The notes: generated from the sequence alone by a model not told the origin. 64,000 nucleotides of DNA from Mycobacteriales bacterium (GCA_035536235.1 DATLOQ010000119.1:9-64008), one strand, 5' to 3'. Shown: positions 2,410 through 59,840, numbered from the stretch's first letter. Translations and numbers: made by a program.

Positions 2410-3453
2410 ATGACCGAGATGGTGGTGGCCGCGGAGGACACCGGACTGCTCCGCCGATGGCGGGAGGTGCTGCGGACCACCAACCCGCCGGCGCTCGGCC
2501 CGGACCAGCAGATCGACGTCGTGTCGAAGTGGCTGGTGCTGACCCGCGCAGCGGTGCTGCCGATGACGCTGACCGCGGGACTGGTGGCCGGCCTTCTCGC
2601 CGTACGCCAGGAGGGATTCCACTCCGGCTACTTCGCGCTGGCGCTGCTGGGCATCACCTTGGCGCACGTGTCGAACAACTTGATGAACGACCTCTTCGAC
2701 AGCGAGGTAGGCCTCGACACGAACAGCTATCCCCGGGCCCTCTACGCCCCGCACCCCATCCTGTCCGGGATGATCTCCCGGCGTGGGTTGGCCCTCGCGG
2801 CACTTGCGGTCAACGTCGCCGACCTGGCGATCGGGCTTGTGCTCTTCAGCGCCCGCGGCTGGCCGGTGCTCGCCTTCGCCGTCTCCGGCTTCCTGCTGAG
2901 CGCCGCTTACACGGCACCGCCGCTGCGGCTGAAGAAGCGGGGCCTCGGCGAGCCTGACGTGTTTCTCGTGTGGGGGCCGTTGATGGTCGGCGGGACCTAC
3001 TACTCAGCGGTCGGCTCCGTGCCGGAGGCGATCCTCGCCGCGTCCATTCCCTACGGCCTGCTCTGCACGGCCGTGCTGATGGGAAAGCACATCGACAAGA
3101 TCCCGTGGGACTCCCCCGCCGGGGTCCGGACCCTACCCGTGATCCTCGGTGAGGACCGCGCGCGAGTGCTCACTCGGGCGCTGATGATCGGCTTCTACGT
3201 CGCCGTCGTCGGCTGCGTGATCGGCGGTGCGCTGCCGTGGCCGGCCCTCGCAGTGATCGGCGCACTACCGGTGCTGGTCAAGACCCTGCAACCGCTGCGC
3301 GAGCCGCGACCCGACGCGCCACCGGCCGGCTTCCCGGTGTGGCCGCTGTGGTTCGCCGCCATCGCCTTCGTGCACACCCGCCGAGCCGGCGCGCTGCTCG
3401 TCCTCGGCCTCGCGGGCGCCGCGATCGCCGACATCCCCGCCCCGGCGCTCTGA
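2410..3453 (+). CDS. UbiA-family membrane prenyltransferase (MenA-like Asp-rich motif NDLFDSEVGLD)
   Basis: Multi-pass hydrophobic protein carrying an NDxxDxxxGxD motif. The start was chosen at ATG 2410 so as not to overlap the divergent hydrolase start; an earlier start remains possible. Confidence 0.55.
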   Translation: MTEMVVAAEDTGLLRRWREVLRTTNPPALGPDQQIDVVSKWLVLTRAAVLPMTLTAGLVAGLLAVRQEGFHSGYFALALLGITLAHVSNNLMNDLFDSEVGLDTNSYPRALYAPHPILSGMISRRGLALAALAVNVADLAIGLVLFSARGWPVLAFAVSGFLLSAAYTAPPLRLKKRGLGEPDVFLVWGPLMVGGTYYSAVGSVPEAILAASIPYGLLCTAVLMGKHIDKIPWDSPAGVRTLPVILGEDRARVLTRALMIGFYVAVVGCVIGGALPWPALAVIGALPVLVKTLQPLREPRPDAPPAGFPVWPLWFAAIAFVHTRRAGALLVLGLAGAAIADIPAPAL

Positions 3454-3466
3454 TGGCCCTGCGCTC

Positions 3467-3510
3467 TTCCGTGTCATAGAAGACACGGAAGAGCGCAGGG
3501 TCACCCGGGT
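3467..3510. terminator. 19-bp perfect inverted repeat (CCCTGCGCTCTTCCGTGTC / ATAGAA / GACACGGAAGAGCGCAGGG); a bidirectional hairpin between convergent genes
   Basis: Read directly from the sequence. It sits between the stop of the prenyltransferase (3453) and the stop of hemY (3501); the stem covers the hemY stop codon. There is no U-tract, as is common in high-GC actinobacteria. Confidence 0.5.
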
Positions 3511-4886
3511 CGCGCCCGAAGGTGGGCGAGGACGGTGGCCGCGGCCTTCTCCCCGGATCGGATGCAGGCGGGCACCCCCACGCCGTCGTACGCCGAGCCG
3601 GCCAGGGCCAGTCCGGGCAAAGCGGCGAGCGCGGCGTCGACCCGGGCGATTCGCTCCCGGTGCCCGACGGCGTACTGCGGCAGCGCGTCGGCCCAGCGCG
3701 AGACGCGGACCTCGAGCGGGCGCGCGGTGAGCCCGACCGCGAGCGCCAGCTCGGTGAGCAGTCGCGCCACGATCTCGTCGTCGTCGTCGGGGGCCGGCTC
3801 GCCTGCTCGCCCGACGGAGCACCGCACGATTGTCACGTCGCCCCGGTCGAGGTGCGCCCACTTCGCCGACGAGAAGGTGCACGCCTTCATCAGGCGACCT
3901 TCGGTCGCCGGCACCAGGAAGCCGCTGCCTCCCGGCGCTCCCGCCAGCGCCCCACGAGGCAGCGCCATGGTCACGACCACGACCGACGCAGTCCTGACGC
4001 CGGCGAGCTCGGTCGACACCTCGGGGGCAGCGAATCGCAGCAGGCTGCTCGCGACAGGAGCCGGCGTCGCCGCGACCACGGCATCCACCACGAGAGCGCG
4101 ACCCCCGACCAGGGTGATCCGCCACGCGTTGCCGACCCGCTCGACCAGGGCCGCCCGGGACGACAAGCGCACGGCGTCGCCGAGGGAGCGCGCGATGGCC
4201 TGGGGCAGCTGCCCGAGGCCGCCGTCGAGAGACGAGAAGACCGGCGACGTGTCGACGGGTGCGGCCGCGGTGCGGCTGCGCACCACGCGCATCACGGAAC
4301 GCTGGCCGTGCGCTGCCGCAGCCAGCTGCGGCACTGTCGACTCGAGGCTTAGCTCGTCCGCCCGACCGGCGTAGACCCCGCCGAGCAAGGGGTCAACGAG
4401 GCGGTCGACGACCTGCCGACCGAGGCGGCGCCGGACGAGCTCCCCGACACTGATGTCGCCGACGGGTGCCGACGCGGGCAGCACCAGGTCGGCCGCCGCG
4501 CGGAGCAGTCCGGCCGGCGAGAGCACCCTGCTGGATGCCAGAGATCGCCATGACCCGGGCACGCCGAGGAGAGTGCCCTCAGGAATGGGGCGTAGCCGGT
4601 CCCCGATCCACACGTAGGCCTGCCCGGTGCTTGGCGAGACCAGCAGCTCGCCGAGCCCGACCTCACGGGCCAGCCGCTCCCCCTCGGGCACCCGGGCCAG
4701 GAAGGCGTCCGCTCCCGCGTCGACCTGGAGCCCACCGATCGACGACGTGTGCAGGATGCCGCCGACCCGCGCCGACCCCTCTAGCACGATCACCTCGATG
4801 GCGGGATCAGCGGTGCGATGGAGCGCATGAGCGCAGGCCAGTCCGGAGATTCCGCCGCCGATGACGGCGACCACCCTGCGCCCCAT
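3501..4886 (-). CDS. hemY: protoporphyrinogen/coproporphyrinogen III oxidase (HemY/CgoX), FAD-dependent
   Basis: N-terminal GxGxxG (VVAVIGGGISGLACA), full-length HemY-like similarity, heme-gene context. Confidence 0.85.
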   Translation of the reverse strand: MGRRVVAVIGGGISGLACAHALHRTADPAIEVIVLEGSARVGGILHTSSIGGLQVDAGADAFLARVPEGERLAREVGLGELLVSPSTGQAYVWIGDRLRPIPEGTLLGVPGSWRSLASSRVLSPAGLLRAAADLVLPASAPVGDISVGELVRRRLGRQVVDRLVDPLLGGVYAGRADELSLESTVPQLAAAAHGQRSVMRVVRSRTAAAPVDTSPVFSSLDGGLGQLPQAIARSLGDAVRLSSRAALVERVGNAWRITLVGGRALVVDAVVAATPAPVASSLLRFAAPEVSTELAGVRTASVVVVTMALPRGALAGAPGGSGFLVPATEGRLMKACTFSSAKWAHLDRGDVTIVRCSVGRAGEPAPDDDDEIVARLLTELALAVGLTARPLEVRVSRWADALPQYAVGHRERIARVDAALAALPGLALAGSAYDGVGVPACIRSGEKAAATVLAHLRARPG

Positions 4887-4894
4887 GTCCTGGC

Positions 4895-5875
4895 TCAGCG
4901 CGGGGGGACCGGTACGGCGTCGGTCGTCGCAGCTCTCGCTGACTCGGGGACCAGCGGCCGCGGCCGCAGGCGCCCTTCAGCGAGGGCCACCGCCACGATG
5001 ACGACCGCCCCGCCGACGAAGAGGTTCCAGCCGAGCGGCTCGTCGAGGACGGCCACCCCTAGCGCCACCGCGACGAGCGGGATCAAGAAAGTGACCATCG
5101 ACGCGCTGGTCGCCCCGATGTCACGGATCAGCCCGTGGTAGAGCACGAAGGCGATGCCCGTGCCGAGCGCCCCGAGCGCGAGCATCGAGAGCACGACTCT
5201 CGGAGTGAGCGTCATCGGCTCCCGGGAAGCCAGCGGGGTGATGACCCCGAGGATGACGGCCGACGCCGTGAGCTGGCAGGCGGCCAGGACCACCGGCGAG
5301 ATGCCCGTGCCGGACAGCTTCTTGCGGGTGAGGTTGAAGCCGACGCCGTACGACACCGCTGCACCGAGTGCGGCCAGCTGACCGGTGATCAAGTTCGCTT
5401 GGTCCGATCCGCGCCACGGCCCCAGCACGACCACCACCCCGAGGAAGCCGAGCAGCAGCCCGTAGACCCGCTCCCGGCTGGGCCGCTCCTCAGGGAGGAA
5501 GAGGATGGCGATCACCAGGGTCATCAGCGGGGTGGTCGCGTTGTAGACCCCGGACACTCCGCTGGAGATGCGCTCGCCGGCCCACCCGAACGCGTAGAAC
5601 GGGATGACGTTCGCCACCAGCGAGAGCACTGCCACCCGCCCCCAGAGGCTGCGGTCGCGCGGCACCGGCAGTCGCCGTACGGCGACGATCAGCCAGACCA
5701 CTACCGCGCCGGCCAGGGTGCGGCCCAGAGCTACCTGCAGGGGCGACAGCCCCTCGAGGGCCACCTTGATGAAGAGGAAGCTGGTGCCCCAGACCGCACC
5801 GAGGAAGCCGAGTCGGAGCAGCGCAGACCGGCTCATTCGCGCAGAGGTCATGGCGGAGTTCGCGGGAGCAGACAC
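4895..5875 (-). CDS. DMT/EamA family transporter
   Basis: 10-TM hydrophobic profile and duplicated EamA-like halves. Confidence 0.65.
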   Translation of the reverse strand: MSAPANSAMTSARMSRSALLRLGFLGAVWGTSFLFIKVALEGLSPLQVALGRTLAGAVVVWLIVAVRRLPVPRDRSLWGRVAVLSLVANVIPFYAFGWAGERISSGVSGVYNATTPLMTLVIAILFLPEERPSRERVYGLLLGFLGVVVVLGPWRGSDQANLITGQLAALGAAVSYGVGFNLTRKKLSGTGISPVVLAACQLTASAVILGVITPLASREPMTLTPRVVLSMLALGALGTGIAFVLYHGLIRDIGATSASMVTFLIPLVAVALGVAVLDEPLGWNLFVGGAVVIVAVALAEGRLRPRPLVPESARAATTDAVPVPPR

Positions 5876-5884
5876 CGACCGAGC

Positions 5885-6805
5885 CTACGCGGCGCCGCTG
5901 CGCTCGTCGGCCGCTTGCCGGACCAGCTGCGCCAGTGCCGCCATCACCTCGGGATCGGCGTTGATCGACCGCGTGCGCGCGAAGGGCAGGCCCAGCTGAC
6001 GGGCCAGCCCGGCTGCCTCGATGTCGAGGTCGTAGGCCACCTCCAGGTGATCTGCCGTGAAGCCGCAGGCGCAGATCACCACTCCCGGCGACTGTGCCCC
6101 GGCGCGGTCGGTGAGGATCTGCAGCACATCCGGGCCCAGCCACGGTTCGGCGGTGCGCCCGGCGCTCTGCCAGCCGACCGACCACGTGGGCAGGGCGAGC
6201 CTCTCGGCGACTTCCTGGGCTGTCTCGGCCAGCTGCATCGGGTACGGGTCGCCCATCGTCACGACGCGCTCCGGCACCGAGTGGGCAGTGAAGACGACCT
6301 CACCGCCGGGCACTAATGCCAGCGCGTCGGTGACGGCTCGGGCGAGGAAGTCGACGTACGCCGGCAGCAGGTGCCACGACGGGACGGTCTCGACCGCGAC
6401 GCCATGGGTCTCGCCCGCCGCAGCCGCCTTCGCGGCGTACTGGCCCACCGACACCGTCGACCAGTGCGGTGCCAGGACGAGCCCGACGGCTCGGTCGAGC
6501 CCGTCAGCAGCCAGCGCGGCCACCCCCTCCTCGATCGAGGGCGCGGAGTGCTTGGTGCCCAGCACAACCGTGAAGCGATCGGGCTCGGCAGCGTCGAGGG
6601 CACTCTGGATCCCGTCGAGCTGCGACTCGGTGATCGCGCGCAGCGGGAACGTGCCGCCGAGCGCGTCGTAGCGCGCAGTGAGGTCCGCCAGCTGCTGAGG
6701 CTCCGGAGGACGGCCGCGTCGGATGTCGGTGTAGTACACCTCGATGTCGTCGCGGTCCCGGGGCGTGCCGTACGCCATCACCAGCACTCCGACCCGTTCG
6801 GTCAC
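5885..6805 (-). CDS. hemH: ferrochelatase (coproporphyrin ferrochelatase CpfC/HemH)
   Basis: MTERVGVLVMAYGTP... ferrochelatase N-terminus and family length. GTG start. Confidence 0.85.
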   Translation of the reverse strand: MTERVGVLVMAYGTPRDRDDIEVYYTDIRRGRPPEPQQLADLTARYDALGGTFPLRAITESQLDGIQSALDAAEPDRFTVVLGTKHSAPSIEEGVAALAADGLDRAVGLVLAPHWSTVSVGQYAAKAAAAGETHGVAVETVPSWHLLPAYVDFLARAVTDALALVPGGEVVFTAHSVPERVVTMGDPYPMQLAETAQEVAERLALPTWSVGWQSAGRTAEPWLGPDVLQILTDRAGAQSPGVVICACGFTADHLEVAYDLDIEAAGLARQLGLPFARTRSINADPEVMAALAQLVRQAADERSGAA

Positions 6806-6810
6806 CGCTC

Positions 6811-6907
6811 AGCCCTGGTGACAGGCACAGCAAGATCACCACGGAGGGGGCGAGCCCTGGGGCCAGGCACAGCAAGATCACCACCTAACGGGTGATCTTG
6901 CTGTGTG
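6811..6907. repeat. Array of a 15-bp motif CACAGCAAGATCACC: two direct copies inside a 32-bp direct repeat (6811-6842, 6853-6884; 30/32 identical), plus one inverted copy forming a 15-bp perfect hairpin (6868-6882 / 6891-6905, loop ACCTAACG)
   Basis: Read directly from the sequence. It lies in the 122-bp spacer between the hemE stop (6928) and the hemH start (6805); the first repeat begins 6 nt from the hemH start codon. Confidence 0.7.
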
Positions 6908-6927
6908 TGTCCACAAGCGGTCATGGG

Positions 6928-7995
6928 TCAGTGGGTCGTGGTCTCGTGGACGAGCTCGACGACGCGGCGCAGCACATCGGGGTCGGTCTCGGGGAGCACC
7001 CCGTGGCCGAGGTTGAAGACGTGCCCCTCCAACCCGCGAGCTCGGTGGAGCACCTCCCGGGTGCGCTCCTCGACGACGTCCCACGGGGCCAGCACCACCG
7101 CCGGGTCGAGGTTGCCCTGCACCGCCTTGCCCGGACCGATGCGGCGGGCTCCTTCGTCGATCGGCAGGTGGAAGTCGACGCCGACGACGTCGGCGCCCGC
7201 CGCCGCCATCAGGCCCAGGATCTCGCCGGTGCCCACGCCGAAGTGGATGCGCGGCACCCCGAGGTCCGCCAGACCCGCGAAGATTTTCTGCGACGCAGGC
7301 AGCACGTGGCGCTCGTAGTCGGCAGCCGAGAGGGCACCGGCCCACGAGTCGAAGAGCTGTACGGCGCTGACGCCCGCGGCCACCTGCGCTCGCAGGAACG
7401 TCAGGGTGAGATCGGCCAGCGCGTCGAGCAGCTGGGCCCACCCCGCCGGGTCGGCGTACATGAAGGCCTTCGTGCGGCTGTGGGTCTTCGACGGCCCGCC
7501 CTCGACGAGGTAGCTGGCCAGGGTGAACGGCGCCCCGGCGAAGCCGATGAGCGGCACCTCGAGCTCCTTGACTAGGAGTCGGACAGCCTCGCCGATGTAG
7601 GGCATGTCGCTGTCGGGGTCGAGCGGTCGCAGCCGGTCCAGGTCAGCCGGTCCGCGGAAGGGCTCGTCGACTACCGGCCCCACCCCGGGTTTGATGTCCA
7701 GCCCGACGCCGATCGCCTTGAGCGGCAGCACGATGTCGCTGAAGAGGATGGCGGCGTCGACGCCGTGGCGCCGCACCGGCTGTAGCGTGATCTCGGTGAC
7801 CAGCTCCGGTCGCGTGCAGCTCTCGAGCATCGTCGTGCCGACGCGCAGCGCGCGATACTCGGGCAGCGACCGGCCGGCCTGGCGCATGAACCAGACCGGG
7901 GTGTGCGGCACCGGCTCGCGGCGACACGCGCGCAGGAAGGGCGAGTTCGCCAGCAGGGAGGTCACGGCAAGGATCGTCCCATGCCTGTCCGGCAC
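6928..7995 (-). CDS. hemE: uroporphyrinogen decarboxylase
   Basis: [10 protein letters not shown] motif and full-length HemE similarity. Confidence 0.9.
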
Positions 7996-8028
7996 CAGCA
8001 GAGCGGGCAGCTGGCCGAAGGGGGCTGC

Positions 8029-8823
8029 TCAGCCGATCCGCAGCGCGAAGGACACCAGGCGTTCGGCCGCACCGGCGCCGGTGCTGACGAATACCGCCTC
8101 GTAGCTCGCCGCAGGGGTCTGGCCGGGATAGAAGTACAGGGCCTGGATCGAGGCGAGCCGGCCAGGGGCACCCGCGACCACCACCCCCGTGCCTCCGGAC
8201 ACTCCGCCGGTGGCGCACTGGGAGCCTGGGCGAGCCAAGCAGACGTCGTCCGCCGACACCACTCCCGCGGAGTAGGACTGCGCCGACGCGAGCACGACCA
8301 TCGACCCGAGCGTGACCGTCATCGGAATGCGGCTCACCGCTGTCGGGACTCCCATCGGCAGGGTCTGCCGCACCAGCTCACCGCGGACGTCGGCTCGACC
8401 TCGGGGCAGGAGCGTGACCGACCGCCCGAGACCTTTCGCGGGCACCCGCACCTCGCTGGGCCCGTTGGCCAGCAACGTGACGCGGTAGCGGCCCGCTGGA
8501 AGCCGGACGGCGTCGAACCCGCCGCCGAAGACCATCGGGACCTGATCGCTGTCAACGGAGAAACCAGCCGCGACCACACCCCCGACAGCGACACTGCCGT
8601 CAGCGCGGTGCACGACGAATCCGGCGAAGGTGCCGCCCATGCGTGCGCTCATCGCCCGGGCCGGCCCGAGCCCGCCGACCTCGAACGTCGTGGGCCGCCG
8701 GAGCACCAGGTTCATGCTCCTGCTGGCCACTCCCCGCAGCACCAGCACCTCAGCGGGGCTGGCCCAGGCCGCCGGCAGTCCGGTCAGACCGAGAAGCACC
8801 AGCAGCACTGCCAGTCGGCGCAT
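8029..8823 (-). CDS. secreted hypothetical protein (signal peptide MRRLAVLLVLLGLTGLPAAWASPA)
   Basis: ORF with a clear Sec signal peptide from internal ATG 8823; the ORF-track extension to 9078 is Arg-rich junk. No recognisable domain. Confidence 0.45.
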   Translation of the reverse strand: MRRLAVLLVLLGLTGLPAAWASPAEVLVLRGVASRSMNLVLRRPTTFEVGGLGPARAMSARMGGTFAGFVVHRADGSVAVGGVVAAGFSVDSDQVPMVFGGGFDAVRLPAGRYRVTLLANGPSEVRVPAKGLGRSVTLLPRGRADVRGELVRQTLPMGVPTAVSRIPMTVTLGSMVVLASAQSYSAGVVSADDVCLARPGSQCATGGVSGGTGVVVAGAPGRLASIQALYFYPGQTPAASYEAVFVSTGAGAAERLVSFALRIG

Positions 8824-8864: not shown

Positions 8865-9713
8865 TCACCCGGCGCCGCCGCTGCCGGCGATCAGGACCAC
8901 GCCGGTGAGTGCGGCGACCACCCCCGCGACCTGTGACCGCCGCATCCGCTCGGCGAGCAGCCGACGCGCCAGCAACGCCGTGACGACGGGGTAGAGCGAG
9001 GCCAGCACCGCGACCACAGCCAGGTCGGCAGCCCCGCTGGCAGCCACGGCGTAAAGGCCGACCGCCCCGAGGTCGCACCCGCCGGCCAGTACGAGCGTCG
9101 GCACATCGGCGCGGCGGACGGTGAGGGGAGTACGACGCAGCGCGACCGTCGCAATGGTGAGGACCGCCCCGGTGGCCCGCATGACGGCGAGGACCGCCAG
9201 CGTGCTGCTGCCCTCGCCCGAAGTGGCCCGGTCGACGAGCACCAGCACGGAGCCGAAGCCCAGCGCGGCCAGGAACGCCAACCCGAACGCCGCACGGCTA
9301 GCGCCGCCATGGCGCAGGTCGAGACCGGAGGCCAGAACCACACCGGAAGCAGCGAGCAGGATCCCACCCGTGGCGAGCGCGCCCGGCCGGTCGCCCTGCG
9401 CCCAGGACACCACCACAGGCACGGCGACGCCGGTGGCGGCGATGGGCGCGACCACCCCCATCGTGCCCACCGCCAGCGCCTGGTAGAAGGCGCTGAGCGC
9501 GACGGCAATGGCTGCCCCCGCGCCGGCCGCGAGCAGCAGGTAGGGGCCGAACGGGGCGTCCCGGCGGAGCAGCAGCAGGCTGCCCGCCAGCACCAGTCCG
9601 ACCACCTGGACCACCGCCACGACGAGCAGCGCGGGGCAGCGGCGGCTGAGCACACCGCCGATGTAGTCGGCGGTCCCCCACAGCAGGCTGGAGACGAGGG
9701 CGAGGAGAGCCAC
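8865..9713 (-). CDS. DMT/EamA family transporter (start uncertain, GTG 9713 or nearby)
   Basis: The C-terminal ~280 aa of the 472-aa ORF are a typical 10-TM EamA protein; the upstream part of the ORF overlaps the divergent DUF3000 gene and is not protein-like. Confidence 0.55.
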   Translation of the reverse strand: MALLALVSSLLWGTADYIGGVLSRRCPALLVVAVVQVVGLVLAGSLLLLRRDAPFGPYLLLAAGAGAAIAVALSAFYQALAVGTMGVVAPIAATGVAVPVVVSWAQGDRPGALATGGILLAASGVVLASGLDLRHGGASRAAFGLAFLAALGFGSVLVLVDRATSGEGSSTLAVLAVMRATGAVLTIATVALRRTPLTVRRADVPTLVLAGGCDLGAVGLYAVAASGAADLAVVAVLASLYPVVTALLARRLLAERMRRSQVAGVVAALTGVVLIAGSGGAG

Positions 9714-9803
9714 GACGATGACCCTACGGGCGACACGCCCGGCGCCAACGGGACGGCCCGGGGTTACCAGTCGCTGCGGCGGGTCCCACCTAGTGTGACG
9801 GCC

Positions 9804-10385: not shown

Positions 10386-11501
10386 TCAGCCACCGGTGAG
10401 GGCCTCTTCCGCACGGGCCTCCTTGGTGACAGCGTCAGTGCCGGAGCTCGGTACGCCGACCGCGGGTCGGCCGCCCGTGGGGACGTGCGGGAGCCTCAGC
10501 TGGAGAACCGTGCCGGCGGCCGGCATCGAGGACACCTCCAGCGTGCCGCCAGCCAGGCGAGCCCGCTCCCGAAGCAGCCCCAGCCCGACATGGCGACCCT
10601 TCTGCGGTCGCACCAGCGCCAGGTCGAAGCCGGGACCGGCATCGAGGACGGTCGCCACGATGCCGGTCTCGTCGACGACGAGCTGGGCCTCCGCCCACTC
10701 CACGTCGGCATGCTTGACGACGTTGAGCAGCGCCTCCTGGAAGAACCGGTAGATCGTCACCGCGGTCGCCAGCGGGAGCGGGTGGGCGACGTCCGGCCAC
10801 GCCAGATCGACGCTGAGCCCGTAGCGCTGCTGCAGCTCGTCACGGAGGTCGGCGACCGCGCCGGCCAGGTCACCTTCGCGCAGGGCCGGGGGTCGCGTGC
10901 GCGCCATGACCGCACGCACCTGCTCCTCCGCGTCGTCGGCGTAGTCCGCTGCGCGCCGCACGCTCTCCGGATCCCCGTCGGAGAGGGAGGAGCGCGTGAG
11001 GGCCAGCGACTGCGCGACGGTGTCGTGCAGCTCGGCGGCCAGCTGACCGCGGGCGCCCTCCTCGGCCGCCACCAGCCCGGAGAGCAGCTCGAACATCCCG
11101 GCCGACGCCGTTTCCGCCGTACGTCGGTGCCGTTCGCCCACCTCGTCCGCCACCCGCGCCCGCAGCGCCAGCGCCTCGAAGGTGCGGGCGAGGTCGTCGA
11201 TCTCGGCACAGAACATCGAGCCGGTCGAGCGCACCCCGCTGTCGGGTTCGGCGCTGCGTTGGACAGCGATCGACCTCAGCGAGCGCAGGCGGGAGACCAG
11301 GCGCCTGGCCAGCACGGCGGCCAGGGCAGCGGCGATGACGGACACCGCGGCCCCTGCCATGAGTCCCCGCGCCAGCGAGCTCCACGGGGCCACTCCGGAG
11401 ATGACGAAGGTCAGCGCCGTCGCGGTGCCGACCGCGAGGCTGCACAGGAGCACCACCGATGCCGCGAGCACACCCAGTGGCAGCCTTGGGCCACGGCTCA
11501 T
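10386..11501 (-). CDS. sensor histidine kinase, NarL class (HisKA_3 H-box ELHDTVAQSL, HATPase_c)
   Basis: Two N-terminal TM segments, H-box, and C-terminal ATPase G-boxes (DAGPGF, GLGL). ATG 11501 overlaps the upstream stop as ATGA. Confidence 0.8.
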   Translation of the reverse strand: MSRGPRLPLGVLAASVVLLCSLAVGTATALTFVISGVAPWSSLARGLMAGAAVSVIAAALAAVLARRLVSRLRSLRSIAVQRSAEPDSGVRSTGSMFCAEIDDLARTFEALALRARVADEVGERHRRTAETASAGMFELLSGLVAAEEGARGQLAAELHDTVAQSLALTRSSLSDGDPESVRRAADYADDAEEQVRAVMARTRPPALREGDLAGAVADLRDELQQRYGLSVDLAWPDVAHPLPLATAVTIYRFFQEALLNVVKHADVEWAEAQLVVDETGIVATVLDAGPGFDLALVRPQKGRHVGLGLLRERARLAGGTLEVSSMPAAGTVLQLRLPHVPTGGRPAVGVPSSGTDAVTKEARAEEALTGG

Positions 11502-12952
11502 GCCTGGTCCGCAAGGACACCGGTGGTCGTCCACTCCGTCGCGGCGCGGCCATGAGTCGGAGCGGTCGTGGGCTCCTTGGCTGCGGTCTCGGTCGCCACG
11601 GCTGCGCCGAGGCCGGGCTCAGCGGCGAGCACGATCGCCCCGAGCAGCGACGCCACGGCACGCTCCACGGCGTGCAGCTCGTCGACGATGTTGGTGACGT
11701 CGTGCGGACCGGTGGGAGAGGTGGCCAGCCGCGCCAGCCGGCCCGCCGACTCACGGAGGACGGTGAGGCTCGGCACGGTATGCGCACCGAGGTCCCCGAG
11801 GGCGCGCGCGGCCTCGTCGGCCGCGTCGGCGCGATCCAGGGCTGCGTCGCGAGAAGCGGTGAGGTCCGCGACGGACAGCCACGCCTCGGCCTGGCCGACG
11901 AGCACGTGCGCCAACGTGACCTCACGCCGGCCGAACCCGGCGGCGCCCCTCGGGCGCTGCGCATGCAGAACAGCCAGCGGGCTGTTGCTGTCGCCGAGCA
12001 CGGCGGAGCAGTACGGCCGGCCCTCGCTCATGCCGGTCGACACGCCGCGGTGCTCGACCGCGCGCACGGCCCACGGCTCGTTCAGCGCCGAAGAAGGGAC
12101 GCGGGCCCGCGACTTCACGCCGTACTCGTCTCCGGCGTAGCGCACCGGGCCGTCCGCGCCCATGAGGAGCAGCTCGACGTCCGCGCCGCCGAAGAGACGC
12201 GCCGCTGCCGTCAGCACCACCCGAGCAGAGGTGTCGACGCTCTGCCCGGTCGCCCGCTCCTGGCCTCTCGCCAGCTCGGTGAAGAGCCGGACCTCCGCGG
12301 CCCGCTGCGTCTGCTGGTCGTAGGAGAACCACAGCAGGAACATCGGGGCCAGCAAGCCGGACAGCCCGAGCGGAGCGTGGAGGACGAGCCAGCCGCCGAG
12401 GATGCCGACCGACGTGTTGCCCGCAGTGTGCAGCGCCGACATCGGCGCGGAGTCCCAGAGCAGCTCCGCCACACGACGGTGCGAGCTCGCTGCTATCGCG
12501 GCCGCGACAAGGAGGTGGTTCAGCAGCCAGAAGACGCCCATGCCGGCCGCGGCACCGATGATCCCCTCGCCGTTCCACACTGCCATCGCCACCGCCGCAC
12601 CGGTGGCGCAGGCGAACTGGGCGAGGTTGAAGGCGACTTTCAGCCGGGGCTGCCGGCGGGTCACCTGCGCCACGAGCACCCCGAGGAGGACCGCCAGGAC
12701 GATCCAGGAGCCTGGAGCGAAGACCAAGGACGCGCCGATCGCCCCATCTGTGCACGAGAAGGAGTAACGCTGGCGACCGAAGGTCAGGTGGACGACGGCT
12801 AGCTCACTGCCAGCGATCACCAGGCCCAGAACCGGAACTGCCCACCAGGCTGGCCGACCCCAATCGGTGACGGCCACGGTTAGCGCTGCCCCCACGAAGG
12901 CGAGCCAGCCGAGTGCGGTCACGCCCTGGGGCGGCGACATCCGGGCGATCAT
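11498..12952 (-). CDS. polytopic membrane protein with cytoplasmic GAF-like sensor domain, translationally coupled to the histidine kinase
   Basis: Six or seven N-terminal TM helices, then a soluble ~250-aa domain; the stop overlaps the HK start (ATGA). No kinase or output domain of its own. Confidence 0.55.
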   Translation of the reverse strand: MIARMSPPQGVTALGWLAFVGAALTVAVTDWGRPAWWAVPVLGLVIAGSELAVVHLTFGRQRYSFSCTDGAIGASLVFAPGSWIVLAVLLGVLVAQVTRRQPRLKVAFNLAQFACATGAAVAMAVWNGEGIIGAAAGMGVFWLLNHLLVAAAIAASSHRRVAELLWDSAPMSALHTAGNTSVGILGGWLVLHAPLGLSGLLAPMFLLWFSYDQQTQRAAEVRLFTELARGQERATGQSVDTSARVVLTAAARLFGGADVELLLMGADGPVRYAGDEYGVKSRARVPSSALNEPWAVRAVEHRGVSTGMSEGRPYCSAVLGDSNSPLAVLHAQRPRGAAGFGRREVTLAHVLVGQAEAWLSVADLTASRDAALDRADAADEAARALGDLGAHTVPSLTVLRESAGRLARLATSPTGPHDVTNIVDELHAVERAVASLLGAIVLAAEPGLGAAVATETAAKEPTTAPTHGRAATEWTTTGVLADQA

Positions 12953-13297
12953 CCGACGTCACCGTCGCTGCTCGGCAACACGCTCCACGACCCCGCGCTC
13001 CAGGAGCCGGCCCTGATCGCGGCGGCGTAGTCGGAGGGGCGGCCGTAGTGGTGGGTGTTCACGGGCGACCCTTTCGGCGACATCGATGGCGGCACTGCTA
13101 CTCATCGGCACGCGGTCAAGCCGACTTTCGTGTCTGGCGGAACGACGTTGGGACGAATGTCTGCTGCCCGTTGCGCCGAATGGGTGAGAAGCAATCGCTA
13201 CAGGCGGCCCGGTGTTCCGCCGAAGCCATTTGCACACGCGAGGTTGGCATTGGGTCCGGCGCATTCGTCGTCTCCCCACGCCGAGGAGGAGGCATAC

Positions 13298-13966
13298 GTG
13301 ACGACCGCGACTGAGGCGCTCGGCAAGGTCGTGCAGACCGGCTTCACCGCAATGGTGGTCGACGATCATCCGCTCGTTCGCGAATCCATGGTGACCCGAC
13401 TGCGGGCCATGGGCGCCGTCGACGTCGTGGAGGCCGCCAGCATCGCCGAAGCTCGTGCGCGGGCCGGCACTGGTGTCCGTGATGTCTGCGTACTCGACCT
13501 CGGTCTCCCTGACGGCTCGGGCCTCGAGCTGCTCGCCGACCTGCGGTTGGCCGGCTGGACTCGGCTCATCGTGCTGTCCGCGGCCGACGACCCGTACTCG
13601 GTTCGATCAGCGTTCGTCGCAGGTGCGCAGGGCTACCTGCTCAAGTCTGCGTCGCCGCACGTCGTTGCCGACGGCGTACGCCGAGTGCTGGACGGCGGGG
13701 TCTACGCCGACCCCTCGGTTGCCTCTCTGCTCGCCCAGGGTCTCCGCTCCGGCACCTCCAGTGATGGCGTCGGGGAGCTCTCCGGACGCGAGATCGAAGT
13801 TCTGCAGCTCGTGGCAGACGGCCGGTCCAACAAGCAGGTCGGCGAGCTGCTCGGCCTCTCCGCACTGACGGTGAAGAGCCACTTGGCCCGCATCGCGCGC
13901 AAGCTCGGCACCGGCGACCGTGCCGAGATGGTCGCACTTGCCATGCGAGCAGGCGTCATCCGCTAG
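13298..13966 (+). CDS. LuxR/NarL-family response regulator (REC + HTH)
   Basis: Receiver-domain Asp pocket (VVDDHP ... VLDLGLPDGSG) and C-terminal LuxR HTH (REIEVLQLVADGRSNKQVGELLGLSALTVKSHL). GTG 13298 is preceded by a GAGGAGGAGG ribosome-binding site. Confidence 0.85.
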   Translation: MTTATEALGKVVQTGFTAMVVDDHPLVRESMVTRLRAMGAVDVVEAASIAEARARAGTGVRDVCVLDLGLPDGSGLELLADLRLAGWTRLIVLSAADDPYSVRSAFVAGAQGYLLKSASPHVVADGVRRVLDGGVYADPSVASLLAQGLRSGTSSDGVGELSGREIEVLQLVADGRSNKQVGELLGLSALTVKSHLARIARKLGTGDRAEMVALAMRAGVIR

Positions 13967-48046: not shown

Positions 48047-48844
48047 ATGGCCGACAGCCCCGACGTGACCTTGATCCGAAAGGTTTTCCAGGCGGCCGCG
48101 GCTGGCGATGTGCGAGTGCTGCGGGAGGTGATCGCCCCCGACTGCGCCCAGCACATCCCGGGCAACTCGCCGATCGGCGGGGAGACCAAGGGCCGCGACG
48201 CAGTCCTGGAGACCCTCAACCGGCGGGCCGAGCTGACCGACGGGACGTTCCAGGCGGCGCCCGAGCTGATCCTCGAGAACGGCCGCGGACTGGTCACGGC
48301 AGTGTCACGCATCACCGCGAAGCGGGATCGCAAAAAGCTCGATGCCCGCAGCGCCCAGGTGTTCCAGATCGTCGACGGGAAGATCGAGGACATCCGTCTC
48401 CTCAGCAACGACCTGGACACCGTGAACGCCTTCTTCGGCGGCACGAAGGTCGCAGCCAGCAAGGACGTCGCAACCGTCCGCAAGGGCTACGCCGCATTCG
48501 GCAAGGGCGACCTGGGCACGCTCCGCAAGCTGTTCGCTCCCGATGTCGTCCACCGGGTTGGCGGCAACTCGACGCTCACCGGTGACTACGAGGGGCCGGA
48601 CGCCGTCCTCGAGCTGTACGGCCGGATCGCGGAGGAGTCCCACAGCACGTTCACCGCTGACCTCGAGGAGGTCTTCGAGGACCGCAACGGTCACGTGCTC
48701 AGCCTGCACCGGGAGCGCGCGGAACGAAACGGTCGGCAGCACGACCAGCGGCACATCCTGCTCTTCACTTTCCTCGGCGGGCTGATTCTCTCGCTGGAGG
48801 AGTGCGCTGAGGACCTGAAGGCCGAGGACGCGTTCTGGGCGTAG
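48047..48844 (+). CDS. tandem SnoaL-like / NTF2-fold protein (ketosteroid-isomerase-like)
   Basis: Two ~125-aa repeats with nuclear-transport-factor-2-like patterns. Confidence 0.55.
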   Translation: MADSPDVTLIRKVFQAAAAGDVRVLREVIAPDCAQHIPGNSPIGGETKGRDAVLETLNRRAELTDGTFQAAPELILENGRGLVTAVSRITAKRDRKKLDARSAQVFQIVDGKIEDIRLLSNDLDTVNAFFGGTKVAASKDVATVRKGYAAFGKGDLGTLRKLFAPDVVHRVGGNSTLTGDYEGPDAVLELYGRIAEESHSTFTADLEEVFEDRNGHVLSLHRERAERNGRQHDQRHILLFTFLGGLILSLEECAEDLKAEDAFWA

Positions 48845-57382: not shown

Positions 57383-58456
57383 GTGGAGAATCGGCCCATG
57401 GTTGTCGTCATGAGCACCGATGCGTCGAGCGCTGACATCGACGCCGTCGTCGCGGTGGTTCAGGCCGCGGGCGGTGACGCCTTCGTATCCCGAGGGGTGT
57501 CCCGCACGATCGTCGGCCTCGTCGGCGACATCGAGCACTTCTCGAGCCTCAACCTCGCCGCTCTGCCCAACGTCGTCGACGTCCTGCGCATCTCCCGGCC
57601 CTACAAGCTCGTCTCGCGGGAGAGCCACGCCGAACCGTCCACGGTCGTCGTCGGAGGCGTGCCGATCGGTCCGCAGCACTTCACCCTGATCGCCGGTCCC
57701 TGCGCAGTGGAGACAGCTGAGCAGACACTCGAAGCAGCGCAGATGGCGAAGCGGGCGGGGGCGCAGCTGCTGCGCGGTGGGGCCTTCAAGCCGCGCACAT
57801 CGCCGTACGCTTTCCAGGGCCTCGGGGAGGCCGGCCTGAAGATCCTCGCGGACGTGCGAGCCGAGACCGGGATGCCGGTGGTCACCGAGGTCGTCGACGC
57901 CGCCGACGTGCCGCTCGTCGCGTCCTACGCCGACATGCTCCAGGTCGGCACTCGCAACATGGCTAACTTCTCCCTCCTGCAAGCCGTCGGCGAGTGCGGC
58001 AAGCCAGTGCTGCTCAAACGCGGGCTCCAGGCGACACTGGAGGAGTGGTTGATGGCCGGCGAGTACATCGCCCAGCGCGGAAACCTCTCGATCGTCTTCT
58101 GTGAGCGCGGGATCCGGACGTTCGAGACCGCCACCCGCAATACCCTGGACATCTCGGCGGTGCCGATGCTGCACATGCTGAGCCACCTGCCGGTCATCGT
58201 CGACCCGTCTCACGCCGCTGGTCGGCGCGACCTGGTCGTGCCGCTCGCCCGGGCGGCCATGGCAGCCGGCGCGGACGGGGTGATCGTCGACTGCCACCCG
58301 CACCCCGAGGCGGCACTGTGCGACGGACCGCAGGCCCTGGTGGCCAGCGACCTCGCCGAGCTCGCCGAGGCAGCCCGCACCATTCCACCGCTCGTCGGTC
58401 GCACGTCAGCGAGCGGTGGGCGATTCGAGGGTGGCGACACCGAGCTCCGGTCGTAG
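57383..58456 (+). CDS. 3-deoxy-7-phosphoheptulonate synthase, class I-beta, with N-terminal regulatory domain
   Basis: DAHPS/KDO8PS family core (GPCAVE...KPRTSPY...) preceded by a ~80-aa ACT/FL-like extension. Confidence 0.8.
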   Translation: MENRPMVVVMSTDASSADIDAVVAVVQAAGGDAFVSRGVSRTIVGLVGDIEHFSSLNLAALPNVVDVLRISRPYKLVSRESHAEPSTVVVGGVPIGPQHFTLIAGPCAVETAEQTLEAAQMAKRAGAQLLRGGAFKPRTSPYAFQGLGEAGLKILADVRAETGMPVVTEVVDAADVPLVASYADMLQVGTRNMANFSLLQAVGECGKPVLLKRGLQATLEEWLMAGEYIAQRGNLSIVFCERGIRTFETATRNTLDISAVPMLHMLSHLPVIVDPSHAAGRRDLVVPLARAAMAAGADGVIVDCHPHPEAALCDGPQALVASDLAELAEAARTIPPLVGRTSASGGRFEGGDTELRS

Positions 58457-58490
58457 GACGATGCGGCTGGACGCGTCAGGAGGACCACCC

Positions 58491-59741
58491 GTGCGCAGCT
58501 CTGGTCGGCCGCTCATCAGCGCCGAGTCGTTCGAGGCCGTGGTCAGCGGCTATGCCGACCGGGTGCACGACGACGTACGCCGACTCGGAGCAACGCAGGC
58601 CGAGGCCGCCCAGATCGTCGAGATGAGCGCCCTCGACGTCCTCGACTCCGTCCATCGTGGCGAGTGCGCGGAAGTGAGCGCTGTCGTCGGGCAGTGGTTC
58701 AACCAGGCTCGCACGCTCGCCTGCCGCCTCGTCGAGGCCGACGACCAGCAGCGGCCACCTGACCCGGATGCGTCCTCGGAGGCCCCGGAGGGCCTGATCC
58801 GCGACACCGATCTGGACCTGGCCCTGCGACGCGGGCTGGCCGCCATGTCGTCACGGGACCGGGCCGCACTGCTGCTGCGAGACGCCTACGAGCTGCCCGA
58901 AGCCGCCACCGCCACGGCACTCGAGCTCGACATCGCCGCCACCCGCGCCCTCGTCACCCAGGCGCGTCGACACTTCGCTGAGGTCGTCGAGATGCGTACG
59001 CCGGCGGAGGTGCCGCTGCACCTGCGTGGGCTCGCCATCCTCGCGCTCCCGGACGGCGAACGCGACCTCATCCTCGACCGGGTGGCGGCCGCCGCGCAGT
59101 CTCGGCTGCCCTCCGACGGCGACCTGGCCACCCTCGCAGAAGTCGAGGACGACCCGGTATACGGCCCGTCGTGGGTCCTGGTGACCGTGAGCATCATCTG
59201 CGCCCTGCTCTTCGGCGCCTTGACCGGCATCGTGACCGCACCTGCCGGCCCGGGCTCGTTGAGCTCCGGCGGCAGCTTGCCGGAGCCGGTGACCCGATTC
59301 GACGTACGCGCCATCGACCCGGCCTTCCAGACCCCGACCAGCACCCCGGCCGCCACGCCGTCGCCATCCCTTTCGCCGTCAGCGCGCCCGACCCCGAGCC
59401 CGACCCCGAGCCCGACCCCGTCAGTCGCGGAGCCCAGTGCGAGCGCTAGCACTCCGCCGGCGGGTGCGGCGACGATCGCGCTGAGCCCGCAGCGCGGGCC
59501 CGACTGCACCATCGTGCGGGTGGTCGGCCGCAACTTCCCGCCGGGAGCTGCGGCCACCGTGACCTACCTGGACCTCACCGGACGGCCGACGGCCTCTGGC
59601 GGAGAGGGCGCGGTCGGGCCTGATGGCCGCTTCGAGGTGGAGTTCGCCGCCTGCGACCCCAGCCGGCTGCCCGGACCTCACCAGGTCATCGGAGCTGCGG
59701 GTGACCGAGAGGATCGCGCCACCTTCACCGCGACGGCGTGA
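58491..59741 (+). CDS. single-chain ECF sigma factor (sigma-2 + sigma-4) fused to an anti-sigma-like TM segment, Pro/Thr/Ser-rich linker and ~90-aa extracytoplasmic beta-rich (IPT/TIG-like) domain
   Basis: Sigma-2-like FEAVVSGYADRVHDDVRRL...AEAAQIVEMSALDVL...VGQWFNQARTLACRL; sigma-4-like SSRDRAALLLRDAYELPEAATATALELDIAATRALVTQARRHF; TM helix WVLVTVSIICALLFGALTGIVTA; PT linker TPTSTPAATPSPSLSPSARPTPSPTPSPTPS. GTG 58491 with an AGGAGG ribosome-binding site. Confidence 0.5.
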   Translation: MRSSGRPLISAESFEAVVSGYADRVHDDVRRLGATQAEAAQIVEMSALDVLDSVHRGECAEVSAVVGQWFNQARTLACRLVEADDQQRPPDPDASSEAPEGLIRDTDLDLALRRGLAAMSSRDRAALLLRDAYELPEAATATALELDIAATRALVTQARRHFAEVVEMRTPAEVPLHLRGLAILALPDGERDLILDRVAAAAQSRLPSDGDLATLAEVEDDPVYGPSWVLVTVSIICALLFGALTGIVTAPAGPGSLSSGGSLPEPVTRFDVRAIDPAFQTPTSTPAATPSPSLSPSARPTPSPTPSPTPSVAEPSASASTPPAGAATIALSPQRGPDCTIVRVVGRNFPPGAAATVTYLDLTGRPTASGGEGAVGPDGRFEVEFAACDPSRLPGPHQVIGAAGDREDRATFTATA

Positions 59742-59840
59742 CCGCCGCAATGCGTCACCGCGACGGCGTGACCGCCGCACTACGTCACTGCGACGGCGTG
59801 ACCGCCGCACTACGTCACTGCGACGGCGTGACCGCCGCAC
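59731..59840. repeat. 3.7 tandem copies of a 30-bp unit CGACGGCGTGACCGCCGCACTACGTCACTG
   Basis: Read directly: copies at 59731-59760 (variant ...CAATGCGTCACCG), 59761-59790, 59791-59820, and a 20-nt partial at 59821-59840. The first copy contains the stop of the sigma-fusion gene; the last copy encodes the C-terminus and stop of aroG on the other strand. Confidence 0.8.

Follow-up and report, generated by a model that had tools for sequence, protein, structure and literature searches.

The 122-nt spacer (6927-6806) between hemE and hemH in an uncultured actinobacterium of the GTDB order Mycobacteriales, outside the genus Mycobacterium, contains three identical copies of a 15-nt motif in two orientations. 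With about even confidence, this array is explained as a young, lineage-restricted insertion that is tolerated and keeps the hand-over of ribosomes from one gene to the next, and not as a conserved control element. The explanation draws on the comparison with ten relatives, all of which lack the array, on the way in which the inserted DNA preserves the reading frame and the old gene junction, and on a short open reading frame that crosses the spacer and ends on the start codon of hemH.

Gene context of the array

The window, i.e. the whole stretch of DNA analysed (64 kb), carries a cluster of heme genes on its minus strand (Table 1), with hemE, the spacer and hemH following one another in the order of the transcript. 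A scan of positions 6400-8400 returned no promoter-like or terminator-like site, and the hem genes would be transcribed as a single mRNA. The encoded ferrochelatase is 100% identical to a protein named ferrochelatase by NCBI from a 'Mycobacteriales bacterium' metagenome-assembled genome (MAG). The closest other ferrochelatase is 86% identical, and matches at 68-70% identity carry the labels of Mycobacteriales, Frankiaceae or Frankiales MAGs. The sequence-only reading had placed the array in the leader of hemH, beginning near its start codon. Both statements need correction: the genes are on the minus strand, so that the array ends 5 nt before the hemH GTG, and the spacer is intercistronic in an operon and not a promoter-bearing leader.

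Table 1. Features of the hem locus and of the hemE-hemH spacer; positions are counted along the window.
Feature	Position	Strand	Evidence
hemE (uroporphyrinogen decarboxylase)	6928..7995	-	Pfam URO-D, E 2.6e-128
hemE stop TGA	6930-6928	-	aligns with the hemE stop of relatives
hemH / cpfC (ferrochelatase), GTG start 6805-6803	5885..6805	-	Pfam Ferrochelatase, E 5.6e-67
EamA transporter, after hemH in the transcript	4895-5875	-	
hemY-like flavin oxidase, after EamA in the transcript	3501-4886	-	
Histidine kinase	10386-11534	-	
ORF without assigned function	11498-12952	-	
LuxR/NarL-type response regulator	13055-13966	+	
Lineage-specific insert, 117 nt (39 codons) relative to L001	6817..6933	-	alignment to L001
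Ancestral junction remnant ACC AGG (GC) TGA GCG, directly before the hemH GTG	6806..6819	-	L001 alignment
42-nt tandem unit a (14 codons)	6853..6894	-	35/42 identical to unit b
42-nt tandem unit b (14 codons)	6811..6852	-	35/42 identical to unit a
Hairpin 5′ arm CACAGCAAGAUCACC, the inverted motif copy	6891..6905	-	
Hairpin loop CGUUAGGU	6883..6890	-	
Proximal 3′ arm GGUGAUCUUGCUGUG, perfect pairing with the 5′ arm	6868..6882	-	
Distal second copy of the 3′ arm, alternative partner of the 5′ arm	6826..6840	-	
Bridging ('relay') ORF, 40 codons and stop, MTACGHTQQDHPLGGDLAVPGPRARPLRGDLAVPVTRAER	6802..6924	-	translation and sequence

The order hemE, hemH, EamA and hemY-like oxidase is found in most relatives. 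Two EamA-family genes are embedded in the heme cluster, one in the gap between hemH and the oxidase gene (4895-5875) and the other upstream of hemE (~8865-9750). The former occurs in all relatives examined except L203 and L204, two of the more distant ones, the latter in every relative locus that reaches that far, and a conserved transporter within a heme operon may merit attention. An inverted repeat at 3454-3503 (22-nt arms, 95% complementary, 6-nt loop) fills the 47-nt gap between two convergent genes, a UbiA-family ORF on the plus strand (end at 3453) and the hemY-like oxidase gene on the minus strand (stop at 3501-3503), and is probably a two-way terminator or the 3′ end of the hem operon.

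Contrary to the statement that no binding protein is encoded nearby, a LuxR-type regulator and a histidine kinase are present in the neighbourhood (Table 1), and nothing ties either of them to the motif. The kinase and the regulator also lie beside the hem cluster in the four relatives with long enough loci (L001, kinase only, and L003-L005). We take such a kinase/LuxR-type regulator pair to belong to the same two-component class as the heme-responsive HrrSA and ChrSA of Corynebacterium.

Architecture of the array and predicted RNA structure

An exact search of the window gives three copies of the 15-mer CACAGCAAGATCACC, at 6826-6840 (+), 6868-6882 (+) and 6891-6905 (-), i.e. two direct copies and one inverted copy, as originally described. 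The 32-bp direct repeat (30 of 32 positions identical) and the perfect 15-bp stem with an 8-nt loop formed by copies 2 and 3 were likewise found again, the former as part of a larger 42-bp tandem unit whose two copies agree at 35 of 42 positions. These units share a perfect run of 21 nt, GTGGTGATCTTGCTGTGCCTG (p ~0.035 for 7 mismatches among 42 positions), and all three 15-mers are perfectly identical within divergent flanks. The direct copies are spaced by 42 bp, which corresponds to about four helical turns. Read along the transcript, the succession is inverted copy, loop, direct copy and direct copy. The inverted repeat can be followed to 25 nt at 84% (span 6858-6915) and is internal to the insert. 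Neither the 15-mer nor the 42-nt unit is self-complementary, and the stem needs two copies in opposite orientation.

Only one other comparably long and near-perfect hairpin is reported in the 64 kb. The window also holds a second minisatellite at 59725-59840, in which a 30-bp unit (TCACCGCGACGGCGTGACCGCCGCACTACG) is repeated 3.9 times at 96% identity; it starts in the last codons of the ORF 58416-59741 (+), lies between convergent ORFs and has a sequence that is not related to that of the hemE-hemH array.

At the RNA level, folding predicts -26.7 kcal/mol for the core of the hairpin and -30.9 kcal/mol for its extended form, and the fold of a 151-nt region reaches a z-score of -4.0 against shuffles. 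Two predictions, the centroid structure and the minimum-energy fold of a 131-nt segment, pair the 5′ arm with the distal copy of the 3′ arm. In the 131-nt fold, the hemH GUG and the preceding bases are mostly paired, with an unpaired probability of 0.00-0.05 for GCGGUG; these folds, as well as the relay ORF described below, rest on one sequence. After the stem the transcript continues with CCUGGCCCCAGG, which has no U-tract. A search of Rfam 15 gave no family match: the only matches were to microRNA-precursor models and to the sRNA model asX6, at 14-20 bits compared with gathering scores of 50-100, and these sub-threshold matches reflect a generic hairpin.

Insertion at an ancestrally short junction

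Ten relatives with ferrochelatases 68-86% identical to the one studied here were compared (L001, L003/L004, L005 and L198-L204). In six of them (L198, L199, L200, L202, L203 and L204), hemE and hemH overlap by 4 nt (GTGA), and in the other four (L001, L003/L004, L005 and L201) the aligned spacer measures 4-17 nt. Judged from these arrangements, the hemE-hemH junction would ancestrally be translationally coupled and leave no room for a promoter. The array is present in none of the ten, the closest being 86% identical in ferrochelatase. The sequence-only reading had proposed to compare these spacers, with conservation among close relatives as the expectation for a regulatory site; the hemE-hemH spacer is not conserved among these relatives, which by that standard argues against a regulatory site.

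Alignment to L001 delimits a lineage-specific insert that contains the present hemE stop, the three 15-mers and the greater part of each 42-nt unit. On its left side, the two sequences match through the hemE codons ...ACG ACC, and on its right side the match resumes at ACC AGG; the insert is thus bounded by ACC on both sides, which makes its boundary ambiguous by 3 nt. Its position is one codon ahead of the old hemE stop, and its length of 117 nt keeps the reading frame. What remains of the old junction stands directly before the start codon of hemH. There, the sequence ACC AGG (GC) TGA GCG GTG ACC aligns with ACC AGG TGA GCGT GTG ACG of L001 with a score of 23, compared with a maximum of 18 in 300 shuffles. 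The old hemE stop corresponds to the TGA at 6811-6809, which the GC dinucleotide puts out of the relay frame. L003 shares a 7-nt core, TGAGCGG, a match that alone is no better than shuffles.

The spacer has a G+C content of 63%, compared with 71% in the window. Together with a GC3 of 47.5% in the relay frame, this fits recent, non-native or non-coding DNA. The age of the insert is poorly constrained, as even the closest relative shares no more than 86% identity in ferrochelatase.

Searches for further copies and for a source

When up to three mismatches are allowed, the 15-mer has seven matches in the 64-kb window, a number reached by none of 100 dinucleotide-preserving shuffles. Four of the seven are loose matches with 2-3 mismatches, and the one that was checked (2 mismatches, at 48641) is located inside long ORFs. 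Beyond such loose matches, no further copy of the array was found in the window, either with the 15-mer at ≤3 mismatches or with the whole spacer in blastn (7-nt words), so that the regulon for which the sequence-only reading had proposed to search finds no member there. The array has no copy in ~110 kb of the relatives' loci either.

The bare 15-mer is too short for scans of large collections, and a viral scan gave only single chance matches among the matches listed. An 18-mer core, GGTGATCTTGCTGTGCCT, was found at 36 loci in 185,579 species genomes and at 36 loci in JGI metagenomes, collections that do not include the source genome. Each locus carries one match of only 18-22 nt, the loci belong to unrelated phyla, and the matches are due to chance. 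Phage collections gave nothing and plasmid collections one chance-level match only. Copies at dozens of unrelated sites, an outcome that the sequence-only reading had named as refuting it, did not appear: in these species genomes and metagenomes without the source genome, only chance-length matches came to light.

As to the source of the insert, neither the DNA nor the peptide level revealed similarity to hemE, to hemH or to the rest of the window. A captured coding fragment was considered: one minus-strand frame of the spacer, giving VVILLCLAPGLAPS, has a GC3 of 80%, the repeat units (6806-6884, minus strand) in the frame VVILLCLAPGLAPSVVILLCLSPGLS show a codon-position G+C pattern like that of host genes, and blastn aligned the spacer in-frame with the gene of an MFS transporter on a Cupriavidus plasmid (46 bits). 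Since 20 codon-shuffled spacers used as controls gave scores of 54, 45 and 44 bits, the transporter match is at chance level, and this origin was dropped with the GC3 hint alone remaining. Two other candidates were discarded. The pairing in the fold between ACCGCU and AGCGGU, located at opposite ends of the insert, recalls the ends of a MITE but amounts to one 6-mer and is not significant (p = 0.21). A putative IdeR/DtxR iron box in the loop region starts with TTAGGT, like the consensus, but fits it by eye at only ~8 of 19 positions.

A putative relay frame across the spacer

The relay ORF crosses the hairpin and both tandem units. Its ATG (6924-6922) stands 3 nt past the hemE TGA and in the hemE frame, and its TGA (6804-6802) overlaps the hemH GTG (6805-6803) in a -4 arrangement. 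No Shine-Dalgarno sequence of its own precedes it, and its codon usage is unlike that of the host: over 40 spacer codons the GC3 is 47.5%, versus 89-92% in hemH and hemE. When inserts of equal length are shuffled, 8% yield a comparable relay ORF. The frame thus goes weakly beyond chance, and its geometry is suggestive but not proof. A phmmer search of the relay peptide against 1.84 billion representative proteins found no homologue and returned only apparent repeat-rich eukaryotic proteins. On account of the low GC3 and of the missing relatives, the peptide is unlikely to matter as a protein.

The hemE stop is a UGA followed by C, and the hemE frame stays open for 41 codons beyond it, as far as the UGA that overlaps the hemH start. 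If ribosomes read through this stop, which is speculative, the hemE product would gain a tail of 41 residues.

A proposed history and mode of action

Under the preferred explanation of a young and tolerated insertion, the insert would be built from one module of ~21-30 nt used three times, as an inverted copy and two direct copies. The simplest origin would be growth on site from a short inserted sequence, with a 42-nt stretch duplicated in tandem and a fold-back duplication giving the inverted copy. Local duplication through slippage and template switching fits the architecture at least as well as transposition does.

The insert would bring a new UGA for hemE, at which ribosomes would terminate before restarting at the AUG 3 nt downstream, on the frame of 40 codons. 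While translating the relay frame they would pass through the hairpin and melt its predicted -27 to -31 kcal/mol, and they would then terminate at the UGA that overlaps the hemH GUG, beside the preserved old junction UGAGCG-GUG. The insertion would be tolerated because the hand-over from hemE to hemH is kept and because translating ribosomes melt the hairpin. If the relay frame were left untranslated, the predicted folds would bury the hemH start, and the hairpin may then lower or uncouple the translation of hemH. By analogy with intercistronic REP hairpins, it may also shield the upstream hemE mRNA from 3′ exonucleases. A role as a transcription terminator is unlikely because the stem lacks the U-tract that intrinsic terminators need with mycobacterial RNA polymerase in vitro (PMC3993855).

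The hairpin may modulate expression. The sequence-only reading had proposed an operator-like arrangement and/or an mRNA structure: a strong structure by the hemH start is indeed predicted, and the mRNA-structure interpretation is plausible but unproven, whereas the operator interpretation is not supported, given a junction with no promoter-like site and an array missing from all ten relatives. The identity of the 15-mers and the 21-nt run could point to a motif that is selected and not neutral, the selection acting by way of a binding protein or of alternative pairing.

Alternative explanations

The array might be an adaptive RNA control element in which one 5′ arm and two interchangeable 3′ arms are selected to set the hemE:hemH ratio, a view that we consider rather unlikely. 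Such an element may block the ribosome-binding region of hemH, provide a signal for processing or stability, or cause partial termination, and its inputs might be translation of the short frame, heme or iron. The strength of the predicted stem and its z-score argue for it, as do the pairing of the 5′ arm with the distal copy, the mostly paired hemH start in the 131-nt fold and the 21-nt core kept identical between direct copies whose flanks have diverged; moreover, mRNA stability is known to change with intercistronic hairpins (PMC3184786). However, its absence from all ten relatives means that it is not a conserved solution, partial termination would have to do without the U-tract, and the RNA has neither an Rfam match nor an apparent ligand-binding architecture. 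An operator array, made of three identical 15-bp half-sites bound by a transcription factor controlling hemH, is very unlikely. Three perfectly identical 15-mers, the direct ones about four helical turns apart, and a response regulator and kinase encoded 3.5-7 kb away speak for it, but no promoter-like site exists at or near the array, the ancestral junction is a 4-nt overlap or a very short spacer within an operon, relatives that retain the same two-component system lack the array, and the motif has no other copy in the 64 kb. In addition, its perfect palindrome of 38 bp with 15-bp arms is far longer than the usual dimer operators.

Mobility offers another origin, in which the array is one copy of a dispersed MIRU-like or MITE-like family that targets stop/start junctions, its tandem units representing copy-number variation of the MIRU-VNTR type; we regard this as rather unlikely. 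A 42-nt tandem unit between co-oriented genes of an operon, at a site filled here and empty in relatives, with an internal ORF that ends at -4 on the downstream start, reproduces published MIRU hallmarks (PMC12548453, PMC3184786), and at the density of MIRUs (~40-50 copies per genome; PMC3184786) a single copy per 64 kb would be unremarkable. Against it stand the missing second copy in the window and in ~110 kb of relatives' loci, the short and solitary matches of the 18-mer core in unrelated phyla, the relay peptide without relatives among 1.84 billion representatives, the silence of phage collections and the chance-level result of plasmid collections. The inverted repeats are also internal and not terminal, the complementarity of the ends has p = 0.21, and the flanking direct repeat is ACC only. 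A more specific version, in which uncultured Mycobacteriales harbour a new family of in-frame elements analogous to MIRUs but unrelated in sequence, with the array as the first member seen, located at operon stop/start junctions and equipped with their own stop, restart, relay frame and a hairpin with two 3′ arms, seems improbable. Finally, an assembly artefact could be suspected in a single MAG contig, since the exact ferrochelatase sequence occurs in the collection as a single member on a single contig and a second, independent assembly of the locus did not turn up. This is extremely unlikely: each flank aligns collinearly with relatives down to the base, assembler errors do not give repeat copies that have diverged (35/42), the repeats are shorter than usual assembly k-mers, and the 117-nt insert preserves the reading frame.

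Comparison with known systems

In its proposed mode of action, the array would come closest to a MIRU or to a short 'delivery' ORF, with the intercistronic REP hairpin as the next analogue. As summarized in a review of translational coupling, MIRUs are inserted at start codons and contain an ORF that has -4 coupling to the gene downstream, an arrangement that limits how far expression is affected (PMC12548453, citing Supply 1997). They measure 40-100 bp, occupy sites that are filled or empty depending on the species and are co-transcribed in operons (PMC3184786). The array resembles them by its 42-nt unit, its tandem arrangement between co-oriented genes of one operon and a site that is empty in 10 of 10 relatives. 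The internal ORF in the same direction, with a stop that overlaps the downstream start at -4, is a further likeness, weak when taken alone since it appears in 8% of shuffles. The differences concern the lack of other copies in the 64-kb window, the perfect 15-bp inverted repeat that is the most prominent feature of the array, and an ORF that starts 3 nt after the upstream stop instead of overlapping it. Furthermore, the host is not a Mycobacterium, and none of the 36 species-genome loci with the 18-mer core belongs to one, a comparison made with the exact core only. MIRUs are flanked by short (tetranucleotide) direct repeats; in the locus studied here, ACC (3 nt) is common to both boundaries of the insert relative to L001.

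The 'delivery' ORFs described in the same review (PMC12548453) are similar in that a short ORF has a stop overlapping the next start (GUGA), that its peptide is probably irrelevant and that its translation would clear a repressive structure at the downstream start. In contrast to them, the relay ORF is known from sequence alone, is marginally beyond chance and is conserved nowhere.

The REP hairpins of enterobacteria, in intercistronic position, affect mRNA stability, according to the overview in PMC3184786 (citing Higgins 1982 and Stern 1988). The array shares with REP and BIME elements a predicted stable intercistronic stem-loop in an operon and clustered copies of alternating orientation, and it may similarly stabilize the upstream mRNA segment and shift the ratio of the two products. 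However, each REP is an imperfect palindrome that folds alone, whereas the 15-mer of the array needs two copies, and REPs number hundreds of copies per genome, whereas the array is known at one locus. REP and BIME elements have an associated RAYT transposase. MITEs possess terminal inverted repeats and a target-site duplication, whereas the inverted repeat of the array is internal. With intrinsic terminators and attenuators the array has in common a G+C-containing perfect stem in a transcribed region, but it differs from them by a stem without U-tract and by the lack of a downstream promoter to re-express hemH. The array fails a defining feature of each of the following: MITE, REP, intrinsic terminator, operator and Rfam family.

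Significance

Because the site is not conserved and has no tie to a regulator, the array provides no evidence on regulation by heme or iron. Its practical value is small: it could serve as a variable-number tandem repeat marker for the lineage and as a cheap test case for coupling by relay ORFs. If the new family of in-frame elements were real, the translation of ferrochelatase, which performs the iron-insertion step of heme synthesis, would depend strictly on translation of the upstream gene. If the preferred explanation of a tolerated insertion is true, the locus would show, with an example from nature, that a tightly coupled junction can take up over 100 nt of repeat DNA and still keep downstream expression, by means of an insert that brings or creates a stop codon, a restart codon and an open relay frame. 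The same logic has been proposed for MIRUs and would here be at work outside the genus Mycobacterium.
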